Below are positions 53,756-61,000 of a stretch of 64,000 bases of DNA, piece by piece. Positions within the stretch are counted from its first letter, which is position 1. Every line of letters begins with the position of its first letter. Source of the stretch: Tubulanus polymorphus (taxonomy: Eukaryota > Animalia > Nemertea); contig NC_134026.1 in NCBI RefSeq assembly GCF_964204645.1, positions 953,950-1,017,949 on the forward strand, in the 5' to 3' direction. Position numbers and translations under genes: made by a program. The notes below the pieces were generated by a model. That model worked only from the letters and a program-made list of their open reading frames with translations. It did no database searches and had not been told where the DNA came from.

Positions 53756-56662
53756 ATGGCTGCTTCAACGAAAATTCACCCAATGACAAGCTCGATCAGT
53801 TCTCTGAACAGCAGTGATCTGGAGATTATATTAAAAGATTTAGTCAAGCAACAAAGGCGGGGTTAGTAAAAAATTATACATCTTAAAATGTTGTTCGTTT
53901 ATAAGTGTCAAAACATTTTTATTTTCTTATCGAACACAAACGATGCATGGCCAAGATCGTAACTCGGCCCTTGGATCAGAATCGTGAAAACAAATTAATT
54001 TCCATCATGTTCTATGTAAAAAGCACAAATTCTAATTTTTAAAAATTTCAAAAAATAAATTCATTCTGGTACGGTGTAAAATAACGTAATCCGAATTGAG
54101 ACGGAAAGGATTCTTTTTCTTTTTACAAATATTTCGTACGAAACATTTAGTTTTGGTACATATTTTCAGGTCTATGTAGAGCCGATGCTCTTACCGATTC
54201 TGGGAAACGGAAACAAACTTTTAAAATGCTGAGCCTGACACTGACGCCGATTCTAATACTGACTTGTATAATTATATACTCATTACATCAAAACGTGATA
54301 GAACGCAATGAGTTGCAAGAGGTTCGTACGATATGCTTTGATGATAGATGCGATTTAGATTGATATGCAATTTTCATGACTCGTTTAAGTTTTCCTATTC
54401 AGCTCGAATAACAAAAATAGCAAAATGATCTAGAATAGACGTTGATATTTCATCTTGTATATTATAGACCAGGGCCGCAATAGATCTTATAGAAGATTTC
54501 GGGCGCCTTCTTCACGATTTACAAAGAGAAAGAGACCAAACGGCACTGTTTATTAGCGCTATCGGACCGAATACAATAAACGCGCTCTACAATTTATGGA
54601 ACACGACGGATAAACGAGTGAGCATAATATCATATCTATCCCCCCCAAAGAAAAATCATAGATCAGAATGTGATCATCTTTGTCGCATCTTTCGCATTGG
54701 GTTTCACAAATGAATTTTAACAACACTGAGCACTGAATCCAGCTGGAATTGGAATACCATTATCGAACATTTTCTAAATATAATATTGTTTTTCAGCTCC
54801 GAATTACATCGGACTGGTTAAATAACAAAGTACTTACAGAGGACAGGCCTGAATTCAAAAGTAAAAGCTCGTTCGGAAGGTACCTGGAAAAACACAGGAG
54901 AGAGGTAAAAACTCGAGATGAAACCGGTGAAAGCTCAGTGTTTAGTGAATTAGATTTCTACACTTCCTTAATCGATGTTATATTTGGATGGCTGCGGAAA
55001 ACGATAATCAAGTATGGAGGAACAACCTTTTGGAAGACAATGGTGGCTTATCAAAAACTATCCGCTTGTCAACAAGACGCTGGTTTGAAACGAGCAATGG
55101 GCTCAATATTTTACATCAGAGGTGGCTTCAAATCATTCACTAATTACACGTATTATATGAAAGCCCACCACGGAGTCATCGTTTATTTTAGGAGGGCTGA
55201 AAACTTCTCAAATTTGGTTAGAGCTCTAGTCGACTCAAATAACGAAACCGTCCAAATATTGCGAGCGCGCATAGATTTATTACAGGAGCCAATTCTATAC
55301 CGTAACGTTACTAACACGTCAAACAGCTTAGGGTCGACTTGGTACGGTTTGATGACGCAGTACATAGAGCACATTGTTGACCAACGAAGGGATCTGGCAT
55401 TCCAACTACAGACTTTAATCGATGAAGATACATCCGCAGCCGATGGTCAGCTAGCTTTAAGTAGTTTAATGATGCTTGTGGCATTATTGATAACGCCAAT
55501 CATGTCAAAATTGGTCGTGAAAGTGGTAAACGACATGCAAAAGTATGCCATTACACTTGCCGATAAAACCAAAGAACTTAGACAAGAAAAACGTCGAACC
55601 GACAGTTTGCTTTATGAGATGTTACCGAAGGTCGTAGCCGAAACGCTTAAGCGTAAAAAAGACGTGGATGCGGAATATTTCAAAGACGTTTCGATAATGT
55701 TTGCAGGAATCGTCGAGTTTGATAAGATAGCCGGAAAACTATCACCCATTCAAACAGTTGAGTTACTCGGCAACATATATACACTTCTCGACGGTTGTGT
55801 GAGCAAATACAACGCTTATAAAGTGGAAACCGTTGGCAGCAAATACATGGTTGCATCAGGTATTGAAAATGTAATCATGTAAAAACGTCTTTATGAATTT
55901 GAATCGTTGATTCTAATCTCTCGATTCGATCATCTCTCTTCGTTTACAGGTATTCCGATGATCAATCCTAAAAACGCCTTAGAAATTGCAGAGATGGCGA
56001 TAGAAATGAACGCCTTATCGGAGAGTTTTACTTCGCCTATCGGTAAAGTGTGGATTCAAATTGGCGTCAATTCCGGGCCGTGTGTGGCTGGTGTTGTCGG
56101 TACGACTCTTCCCCGTTACTGTCTGTTTGGGGACACAGTGAACACAGCTTCGCGAATGGAATCATTTGGTTTACGTAAGTATCTTTAGACCGATGTACGA
56201 ATAACTTCCTACGATGGTTTTATTTGAAGAGGTAAAAAAGCTCCTGTATTTATTATTACAGCTAACAGAATTCATATCAGCGCTAAAACCCAACGGACAC
56301 TGAAGAAGGCGAACAAGTTTAAAATGATCTCTCGTGGAACCCTGACAATCAAGGTGGATTTTAAAAACAATTTTTGAAAAATAATTGCTGCTTAAGCATT
56401 CTAACCGTGATAAAATGATAACTTCATTTTTCTACAGGGTAAAGGTGTAATGACAACGTATTGGTTATTGGGTTATAAAACAGAAGAAACGTGTGTGATG
56501 AAATCCATTCAAAATGTCTTAACATCAAGAGGTGAACCGCCGTTAGACGCGCTTAACCCAGAGCAGGCTGAGGTACCGCTAGCATCAACTTCTGCCAGAA
56601 CTATATTTGATGACCTTGGTGTCAAATATTTCCCCAACACCGAAATTGCTGAGGTTAATTAG
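53756..56662 (+). CDS. NIT-domain membrane guanylate cyclase-like protein A, multi-exon
   Basis: N-terminal TM ([18 protein letters not shown]); NIT-like [13 protein letters not shown]; second TM; coiled coil [18 protein letters not shown]; cyclase motifs YKVETVG and [27 protein letters not shown]. Confidence 0.88.
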
Positions 56663-58067: not shown

Positions 58068-61000
58068 TCACGAGCCATCTACTTCGGGAAGTTGAGGCAG
58101 TTGTTTCCGGGTTTTCTTGCCTGAGATATTCTCACTTGCTATTGCCTCAGATGATTGGGCTTTGGCTATACCGAGGAGGTCGTGTAAAGATCTCATAACA
58201 TAAGCCGCAGTTTGAGCTTCGTCCTTCTTAAATCCGACCAACCAAAATGTACTCACGTTACCCTTTCCCTGAAATACACAATTACGTCACAAGATAGAAA
58301 TATAAATGATTTCGCTTTTTCTCTGATTGTACGCGAGTTTCTGAAATAGCACTCGTAACCATCAGATTTAAATCATGAAATAGTTTTAGTCTACCTTTAG
58401 ATATACATCTCCTCGTGACATTATCTCAAATTTACCAGTTCTCTTCAGTAGACGCTGAGTAGGCAGACTGATGTGAATACGATTGGCTGCAATTATCAAT
58501 TATGCATTTGTGTCAAAAAAAGAGTTTCCCTTCGTGGTTCTTAGCGGCAAGATGAATATGAATACTCACGTAAACTGTTCGATTCAATACGCGAAGCTGT
58601 GTTGACTGTATCACCAAATACGCAGTACCTCGGCAAAGTTGTACCGACAACCCCAGCTACACATGGTCCAGAATTGATGCCTATCTGAAGCCAGATCTTT
58701 CCAACAGGTGCCGTGAAGGTTTCGAATGAATCTAGTATATCTAAAGCTACCAAAGCCAATTCTAGGGCGTGCTTCAGATTCTGCTGCGGGAGACCTGTGA
58801 AATAGTGTAACTACGTCATCACCAAAAACATAAATCAATTTTTAGATGCACGCGGCAAACACCGGCTTACCGGAAGTGACCATGTATTTGCTGCCTACAG
58901 TCTCGACTTTGTAGGCGTTATACTTGGAGATGAGAGCGTCAAGTCTGGAGTAGATCTTACCGAGAAGATCTACCGTTTGAATCGGTGATATTTTACCGCA
59001 TATTTTATCGAAGTCAACGATGCCGGTAAACATTACGGATACTGATTGAAAGTATTCGGCGTCGACGTCTTTGCGGCGTTTTAGCGTTTCGGCCACCATT
59101 TTCGGTAGCATTTCGTACAGTAGTGAATCGGTTCTTTTCTTTTCTCTGCTGAGTTCTTTAGTTTTATCTACCAATGTCAGCACAAATCGTTGCATATCGT
59201 TGACGATTTTGATCACTAGTTTCACTTTTACCGGTGTAATTATCATCAGAAGAAGAGCCATAAAGCAACTAAATATAAGCAATTTGTCAATATCGTCTAT
59301 TTTCCCACCTAATTCGTCCTTGATGTGAACAGATAGATTTTGTCTTAGTTTCGTCAACGATAAGATGTAATGACTCGTAGTTGTAAACCATTCCTCAGCC
59401 ATTTCTACGGAAGGCGTACTCTGCTGTTGTCGCGAAATAGTATGTCTCATTTCATTCAGCTTTAAACGTTGAACAGTTTCGTTCGATGAGTTTTGTAAAC
59501 TGTTGATTTGAACTGAATAATCAACTGCCCCGGAGAGATATACCTTAATTCCGGCTACAGTTTTCATATAAAACGCGTAGTCGTGACGAGTAGTGAATCC
59601 ACCTATCGCAAAGAACGGGATTCCCAGCACGCGTTCAATACAGGCTTCATTTTGGGCAAGGATTATCTTCAGGTAGGATACCAGTTTTTGCCACAAGGCG
59701 TCGTTTCCTGATTCTATAACCGATTTTCTAAGCCACACGAATAAGTAATCAATAATGTCCGAGTAGAATTTGATTTCGCTGTAAATCGTTATAGATTTAT
59801 TCGTCAATTTGAAATATTGTCTATGTCTCGACAGATACAGCTGAAACGTACTTTTATTCATGAATTCAGGGTGTTTTTCGATCAGGTCCTGTCCCGCCGG
59901 CCACTTCGAAACGGCATCTAACTGAAAAACATTTTTATTATGGCGACAACAGAAATAAAATTTCTCCTTCTGAGAATTAGACTCATATATTAGAATTACT
60001 CTTGATTTTAGGCTATTCAGAAGAAAATCCATCTTAACTTTCAGATTTCTTAATTTTGTCAGGAATATGTTCGCGTACTTCTTGGTCAGTTTGTTTCCAC
60101 AAGGTTCTGACGGATGTCATCGTATCCGGTCCGATAGCGCTGAGGAAAAGGGCGGCGGTATCCCGTTCGTTCTGTAACGCGTATACCAGTGTACCGATAT
60201 CTTCTATCAATTTTACTCCGTCCATCGTCTGAAATATCCATGTTAACCGTTTTGTAACAAAGCCACACAAAATAGATAAAAACTTTATAAAACTCTTTCC
60301 ATGTCAACGATTTATAATGAAATCCCAATAAGCCTTTTTACAGTTTCCAGGCGCCAAGTTTTTGGGTAGGCCTACCTGCTCTGGTGCACCGATTTGGGGT
60401 TGTTTGTTCGGGACATTTTATTCATTCATTTATTAGGCTAGAATATTTCGCTTACTACATGGACAGAGTTTGAACCTTCCTTGTATATCATTTCTAAACT
60501 CGAAAATGATTGGCAACCGAGGTAAAATTAGCAATCCCAACAGGGAATAGTCTAGGAAGCCAAGATCCGAACGACGTAAAAATATATTTTAACAGTGAAA
60601 AAATAGTCCATCTCCCCGATGAATTCCATATTCGTGTGTACCACCTACCTTTACTAGTGCTTTCCTATTGTATATGTTCAACTGAATATCATAAATAATG
60701 ATACCAGTCAAAATAACGATAGGCAACATCGCAAGGCTGACCATTTTAATCAGTTGTTTTCTTTTTCCTTTTACCGTCAAAGCGATGTCGTTACACAAGC
60801 CTGCAAATTGTTTTCACGAGCCATTGAATTAATCAAAAGAAGTATATGGCCTAAAATATATATAATTTCCAACCGCAATTCATCATAAATTCATCATGCA
60901 CTTGTGATGGCTGCTGATTCCAGAACAAAGTAAATAAACGCTATACAGCTCATACAACCTATAGTTTTGCATGCGCGGAATTCGCGCATTAAACAAGATT

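Follow-up and report, generated by a model that had tools for sequence, protein, structure and literature searches.

Two convergent half-site NIT guanylate cyclases in the nemertean Tubulanus polymorphus and their predicted alpha-type partners

The stretch analyzed here, referred to as the window, comprises 64,000 nucleotides of the nemertean Tubulanus polymorphus (RefSeq assembly GCF_964204645.1, contig NC_134026.1, positions 953,950 to 1,017,949 of the forward strand). It includes two convergent, tail-to-tail paralogs, genes A and B, encoding guanylate cyclases with a NIT domain (NIT-GCs) in which one half of the active site is missing (Table 1). The two genes have equal intron phases, and the lengths of exons 2, 3, 5 and 6 are the same in both. 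The interval 55680..59050, to which the original prediction of half-site cyclases had been assigned, covers the cyclase ends of both genes, but the genes reach well beyond it. The gene A model is identical to the database protein P0001. Three unlabelled contig runs of one study contained no splice joints, which speaks neither for nor against expression. The database version of gene B (P0002, 626 aa) has a shorter exon 2, its donor lying upstream of the one used here, and the first transmembrane helix (TM1) is thereby lost. The longer exon 2 (152 bases, as in A) is the likelier one from homology to gene A, and the P0002 exon would then be either a mis-annotation or a splice variant without the first membrane anchor. 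A short high-copy repeat with very high contig depth is present in intron 2 of gene B (60325-60368).

Pfam matches to NIT, the coiled-coil tail of HNOBA and Guanylate_cyc were found on exons 3-5 of both genes. Both proteins have the NIT domain (PF08376) between two transmembrane helices, in B depending on the chosen exon-2 donor for TM1, and a C-terminal class III cyclase domain (PF00211) with Glu/Cys guanine specificity. The hydrophobic helices flanking the NIT domain of A are located by hydropathy at about aa 56-74 and 350-380. Neither protein has a kinase-homology domain, and the second helix passes directly into the coiled coil and the cyclase. The HNOBA match includes only the last 44-46 positions, the N-terminus being of the form TM-NIT-TM and not H-NOX/PAS. 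The two conserved NIT arginines, present in 82/91 and 69/91 NIT-GCs, are both found in A (R108, position 54531, and R235, position 55091) and in B. The AlphaFold model of A (mean predicted local distance difference test score 86.4) matched the NIT domain of NasR over aa 67-350 (4AKK; Z 27.3, root-mean-square deviation 3.4, 269 residues aligned) and the cyclase domain of the alpha subunit of soluble guanylate cyclase (sGC; 3UVJ_A; Z 27.1, deviation 2.4, 186 aligned).

Table 1. Features of the window, in window coordinates.
Feature	Position	Strand	Remarks
Gene A, beta-type NIT guanylate cyclase	53756..56662	+	670 aa, seven coding exons; GT-AG introns, no internal stop
Gene A exons	53756-53861, 54170-54321, 54468-54617, 54797-55859, 55950-56174, 56262-56353, 56438-56662	+	
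A NIT domain	54468..55402	+	exon 3 and beginning of exon 4; PF08376, E 1.1e-7
A degenerate beta1-alpha1 triphosphate loop	55706..55723	+	Gly440 (metal Asp, 55706-55708), Glu443, Asp445 (Thr)
A second metal Asp site	55838..55840	+	Ser484
A phosphate Arg site	56057..56059	+	Gln527
A intact beta face	56120..56155	+	Cys548, Asn555, Arg559; also Glu480 at 55826, KGKG 56351-56446
Gene B, beta-type NIT guanylate cyclase	58068..61205	-	657 aa (present model), seven coding exons; GT-AG introns, no internal stop
Gene B exons	61205-61103, 60800-60649, 60228-60079, 59921-58871, 58794-58570, 58486-58395, 58268-58068	-	
B NIT domain	59325..60228	-	exon 3 and beginning of exon 4; PF08376, E 1.8e-7; both conserved Arg present
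B degenerate beta1-alpha1 loop	59007..59024	-	Gly435 (metal Asp, 59024-59022), Asp438, Asp440 (Thr)
B second metal Asp site	58890..58892	-	Ser479
B phosphate Arg site	58685..58687	-	Gln522
B intact beta face	58589..58624	-	Cys543, Asn550, Arg554; also Glu475 at 58904, KGKG across last intron
Open frame of 1196 codons	11717-15307	-	segment of long coiled-coil protein; no Pfam match over cut-off
Open frame of 280 codons	5230-6072	+	Pro/Ser-rich; no Pfam match

The catalytic residues were compared at the eight positions given in Table 1 of PMC6005667. In both A and B the first metal-binding Asp is replaced by Gly, the second by Ser and the phosphate-binding Arg by Gln, whereas Glu480/475, Cys548/543, Asn555/550 and Arg559/554 (A/B, respectively) are intact, and so is the KGKG motif (residues 596-599 in A and 591-594 in B), which is split by a phase-0 intron. 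The three alpha/C1 positions (1, 3 and 4) are gone and all five beta/C2 positions present, which is not the pattern of a homodimeric cyclase but that of an sGC-beta type, with the beta face present and the first Asp and the phosphate Arg absent. The motifs quoted in the original prediction were all present and in frame in both genes, and its half-site (beta/C2-type) reading of them was borne out. The likeness to sGC-beta that it had drawn holds for the change of the first Asp to Gly but not for the second Asp, which human sGC-beta retains (Asp477; PMC6005667). The Lys/Asp pair specifying adenine, to be expected of an adenylyl cyclase C2 domain, is absent, Glu480/Cys548 being found instead. If three losses fell at random among the eight positions, the probability of hitting exactly the three of the alpha face would be 1/56, counted as one event because A and B share it. 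Eleven of the 51 cyclase positions with at least 95% conservation in 72 complete cyclases differ in A or B.

The missing aspartates were not found at shifted positions: A aligns with GC-A and GC-C without gaps at the catalytic sites, the AlphaFold model places the lost sites at the end of strand beta1, the beta2-beta3 turn and the start of beta4, and a register shift was rejected on this basis. The beta1-alpha1 loop, which in the metal-binding subunit makes up the triphosphate site (PMC2576301), is altered also at Thr445, which is Asp in both A and B. The acids at 443 and 445, being inside this triphosphate-binding loop, are more likely to repel than to replace the metal Asp. By established class III cyclase chemistry, in which the metal Asp residues are needed, no metal site can assemble in A/A, B/B or A/B dimers, and these are therefore predicted to be inactive.

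The cyclase domains of A and B are 68% identical, with a nonsynonymous divergence (dN) of 0.25, a proportion of synonymous differences (pS) of 0.73 and a synonymous divergence (dS) of about 2.8 (rough Nei-Gojobori estimate), the synonymous sites being near saturation. This low dN over a near-saturated dS shows that A and B are kept by purifying selection and are not decaying copies, in agreement with the earlier claim that such clean asymmetric loss reflects selection. Together with the open frames it also led to the rejection of a pseudogene reading. The long NIT-domain branches and the 34% identity of A and B in this domain would fit decaying duplicates, or misread or mis-assembled sequence, but this explanation is hardly credible, since the frames are open, the splice sites canonical and the synonymous divergence near-saturated, equal losses arose in both copies through different codons, and the database annotation matches gene A exactly.

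The NIT family search of the genome gave 16 matches in 12 loci, and the counts that follow are lower bounds. Spliced models were built for the ten further NIT loci and for 30 more cyclase stretches. Four of the 12 NIT-GC loci are of beta type (A, B, L039 and L040; in the latter two the second Asp remains and the first is lost), four of alpha type (L031, L034, L035 and L036) and four complete (L032, L033, L037 and L038). The alpha-type proteins have both Asp and the Arg but have the Asn and Arg of helix alpha4 replaced, and KGKG is broken or not aligned in all four of them. This genome-wide tabulation of residues thereby provided the alpha-type NIT-GC that the original prediction had expected to be encoded elsewhere, and complementary half-site paralogs, as in heterodimeric class III cyclases, are present in one genome. 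The contig of A also carries L031, at a distance of about 170 kb, and L034 and L035, 28 Mb away. Half-site proteins make up 8/12 of the NIT-GCs but 0/14 of the other modelled receptor-type cyclases, all 14 of which are complete (Fisher p 3e-4, the paralogs not being independent).

Some further observations concern this gene set. The alpha state originated twice in this genome, the second time in L036, an alpha-type gene that nests in a clade of complete NIT-GCs. L032 and L033 form a head-to-head pair (L036, L037, L032 and L033 are on G000:C7 and C1). The cyclase domain of L065 (G000:C7:15393000-15399000) is degenerate on both faces, with the first Asp changed to Glu, the base Glu to Gln and the alpha4 Arg absent. 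Two NO-synthase loci are located at about 7.13 Mb and 27.98 Mb of G000:C2, the same contig as the window and six other NIT-GC loci.

Homolog searches gave about 200 proteins. Of 168 database proteins, 105 were classifiable; in the other 63 the cyclase motifs could not be read. The trees constructed of the NIT part only exclude the cyclase columns and are blind to the catalytic residues. Residue counts use the 61-row NIT tree, with 26 rows in the alpha clade and 22 in the beta clade; P0102 is in the final counts, P0199 and the C-terminal part of P0184 are uncounted, and the truncated P0034 was omitted from one residue comparison. The alignment of KGKG is uncertain in alpha members, and the counts there are soft.

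A and B grouped in a beta clade with proteins of Lineus, Lingula, Owenia, bivalves and gastropods (nemertean, brachiopod, annelid and mollusc), and L031, L034 and L035 in an alpha clade with Lingula, a chiton, bivalves and gastropods, so that both types are conserved, the beta in four phyla and the alpha in three. In the 46-row NIT-only tree the beta clade was supported by 98/95, the alpha clade by 100/99 and their sister relationship by 100/95, and in the 61-row tree the corresponding values were 99/96, 100/99 and 98/89; the two were sisters in all four NIT-based trees, including a 91-row quick tree. The catalytic residues of the clades mirror each other. The alpha clade has D440 in 26/26, T445 in 26/26, G483-D484 in 22/22 and R527 in 22/22, and the Asn+Arg pair in 0/23; the beta clade has an intact D-G-D in 0/21, Asn+Arg in 18/19, Arg559 in 19/19 and K596 in 20/20. 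The Asn+Arg pair was likewise lacking from all 15 further proteins of other species that a search with the alpha paralog's NIT part recovered and that had a readable alpha4 helix. Seven of the 16 species with a beta member also gave an alpha member, namely Tubulanus, Lingula, Mactra, Mizuhopecten, Argopecten, Elysia marginata and Plakobranchus.

At A residues 393-397 of the coiled coil, position 396 is Glu in 6/7 of the beta-clade proteins shown and Ala in 6/6 of the alpha-clade ones, a difference that could help to select heterodimers. The records of the Argopecten proteins P0008 (beta) and P0179 (alpha) are on same-sized contigs, and so are a pair of beta-type genes of Lineus and an alpha-type NIT-GC from a different clade (P0012/P0013/P0140); linkage is possible in both cases.

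Outside the two clades, half-site NIT-GCs were found among crustaceans (a copepod, a barnacle and a prawn) and also in hemichordates and a sea urchin. The idea that the beta type arose just once in bilaterians was rejected, as joining the hemichordate beta-type protein P0196 to the lophotrochozoan clade failed the approximately unbiased (AU) test (p-AU 0.012). The half-site split of NIT-GCs therefore seems, from these sequences, to have occurred more than once.

The clade counts bear also on whether A and B are catalytic at all. They could be pseudo-enzymes, scaffolds, GTP-binding or dominant-negative proteins, the conserved residues serving folding or dimer contacts; A and B have indeed lost more than their relatives (both Asp, the Arg, and Thr445 to Asp), and doubly degenerate NIT-GCs exist, comprising 8 of the 105 classifiable database proteins. 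Asn555, Arg559 and Lys596 are, however, dispensable for the fold, as they are lost in the alpha clade, and their retention throughout nearly all of the beta clade therefore indicates catalytic use, which makes a non-catalytic role very unlikely. Also a purely dominant-negative role, offered earlier as the alternative to an alpha-type partner, fits poorly, because the beta-face residues are conserved clade-wide and pairing with a complete subunit leaves one working site.

Judging from these residue patterns, A and B are probably beta-half NIT-GCs that produce cyclic guanosine monophosphate (cGMP) only when paired, most likely with an alpha-type paralog. Dimers of A or B with an alpha-type NIT-GC would be held together by the coiled coil and the cyclase domains and would have one active site, with Asp, Asp and Arg from the alpha subunit and Glu, Cys, Asn, Arg and Lys from A or B, while the second, pseudo-symmetric site would be dead. 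An extracellular NIT ligand, presumably nitric oxide (NO) or its oxidation products nitrite and nitrate, would switch the predicted heterodimer on; NO, nitrite or nitrate as the ligand of A and B is likely by analogy, considering NIT homology and one annelid paralog. As two genes would be needed, receptor activity would be gated by co-expression, and combinatorial receptors could be formed. The split would have taken place by duplication and complementary loss early in lophotrochozoans, independently of the alpha/beta split of sGC. The chances are about even that this constitutes a second animal alpha/beta cGMP receptor system for nitrogen-oxide signals, with a lophotrochozoan split, free combination (4 beta x 4 alpha here) and renewed origins in crustacean and ambulacrarian NIT-GCs.

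Several results weigh against this interpretation. No alpha-clade member was found in 9 of the 16 species with a beta member, in searches that were incomplete for these nine. Both Asp are present in 8/21 beta-clade members and Arg527 in 16/20; in molluscs the beta lesions are instead replacement of Gly483 by Asn or Phe and of Glu561 by Lys, Arg or Met, together with an altered P-loop, which we infer would abolish the alpha face. Asn555 is present in 9/23 alpha members and Arg559 in three, and P0102 (Elysia) of the beta clade is degenerate on both faces. When whole proteins minus the motif columns were analyzed, the alpha-beta sister branch was supported only by 90/79, and a tree joining alpha with a third clade was not rejected (p-AU 0.28); neither was a cyclase-only tree uniting the beta NIT-GCs with sGC-beta (p-AU 0.26-0.38). 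Next to the second NIT Arg, A has Lys at 234 where 60/91 NIT-GCs have Glu. Platynereis NIT-GC1, the only NIT-GC for which NO-dependent cGMP synthesis is shown, produced cGMP in COS-7 cells on addition of an NO donor without a co-expressed NIT-GC (bioRxiv 10.1101/2023.08.02.551600), and heterodimerisation is therefore not family-wide. The complete L032, L033, L037 and L038 could also provide the alpha face.

The last point belongs to a different explanation, in which A and B pair mainly with complete NIT-GCs as one-site heterodimers altering ligand range, gain or localisation, and the alpha-type proteins do likewise. The four complete genes of this genome, the beta-face conservation, which fits equally, the indecisive AU test of the alpha/beta sister status, and the origin of the extra alpha-type gene L036 within a complete-gene clade are all in its favour. 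It is nevertheless considered unlikely, since two mirror-image clades that coexist in nemerteans, molluscs and a brachiopod and come out as sisters in each of the four NIT-based trees are what complementary loss following a duplication predicts, whereas independent half-losses need not be reciprocal. We infer that the obligate pairing of A and B would be with alpha-type proteins instead of complete ones.

Alternatively, A and B could pair with L042 or L060, soluble cyclases of alpha type, or their cyclase domain could have been captured from sGC-beta, and both the resemblance of FxGIV and ETVGxKY to sGC-beta and the survival of the joint clade with sGC-beta in the AU test are compatible with this. 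The best cyclase trees, however, place sGC-like sequences apart from the NIT/receptor cyclases (98-99 in the Shimodaira-Hasegawa-like approximate likelihood ratio test, SH-aLRT), and H-NOX and the greater part of the PAS/HNOBA region are missing from A and B. The cyclase introns of A and B (491.1, 566.1 and 597.0) are at NIT-GC positions, whereas those of sGC are at 479.0, 526.0 and 577.2, and capture from sGC-beta is disfavoured by these introns. Joining of the alpha NIT-GCs with sGC-alpha received a p-AU of 0.08 with all columns and 0.004 without the motif columns. A soluble partner or a captured domain is thus highly improbable, and A and B do not appear to be members of sGC-beta, though they are predicted to work likewise.

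NIT-GCs, described by Moroz et al. 2020 (PMC7400543), are a recently recognised and barely tested family of proposed non-haem NO, nitrite and nitrate sensors in many invertebrates, with 15 genes in Platynereis. Should two thirds of a genome's NIT-GC copies be half-enzymes, they will seem dead when assayed gene by gene, and receptor numbers taken from gene counts will be too high; the residue table shows which NIT-GC pairs to co-express. The NIT-GCs would also join sGC, adenylyl cyclase and ODR-1/DAF-11 as an independent example, extending over several phyla, of class III cyclases that have lost their active sites in a complementary manner. A literature search lacking most subscription journals found no description of NIT-GCs as half-site or heterodimeric, and the accessible parts of PMC11412693, PMC10073611 and PMC8199190 added none. 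No word beginning with 'dimer' occurs in the Platynereis NIT-GC preprint, and the sole occurrence of 'heterodimer' in PMC7400543 concerns PDZ domains.

The known NIT-GCs (PMC7400543; Platynereis NIT-GC1/2) share with A and B the order TM-NIT-TM-coiled coil-cyclase, the two NIT arginines and the distribution in animals. Platynereis NIT-GC1 produced cGMP when expressed without another NIT-GC; A and B are half-site. In sGC alpha1/beta1, an obligate heterodimer, the eight positions are divided as here, with the first Asp of beta changed to Gly and the Asn/Arg of alpha lost (PMC3591389, PMC6005667), and on account of this division human sGC-beta homodimers are inactive (PMC3591389). sGC differs from A and B in being soluble, in having a haem H-NOX sensor and PAS, in the retained Asp477 of beta, in its introns and in forming a separate branch in the best trees. 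In the extent of loss A and B are closer to the adenylyl cyclase C2 domain than to sGC-beta, as in C2, too, neither Asp is present and the second site is Ser (L067 and L069 of this genome); adenylyl cyclases, however, have both halves C1/C2 in one chain and Lys/Asp adenine specificity instead of Glu/Cys.

A precedent among membrane receptors is the obligate receptor guanylyl cyclase heterodimer ODR-1/DAF-11 of C. elegans (PMC5225109), in which, as in the predicted NIT-GC pairs, each protein provides part of one catalytic site. These are single-pass proteins with a kinase-homology domain and without NIT, and they form one nematode pair as against phyla-spanning clades. The fungal rhodopsin-guanylyl cyclases NeoR/RGC are likewise obligate sensor-cyclase heterodimers, one duplication away from homodimers, but they differ from NIT-GCs in their light sensor and in that the isolated cyclase of one partner is active alone (PMC10622942). 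Heterodimeric cyclases are already known; among NIT-GCs such an arrangement would, to judge from the literature searched, be new.

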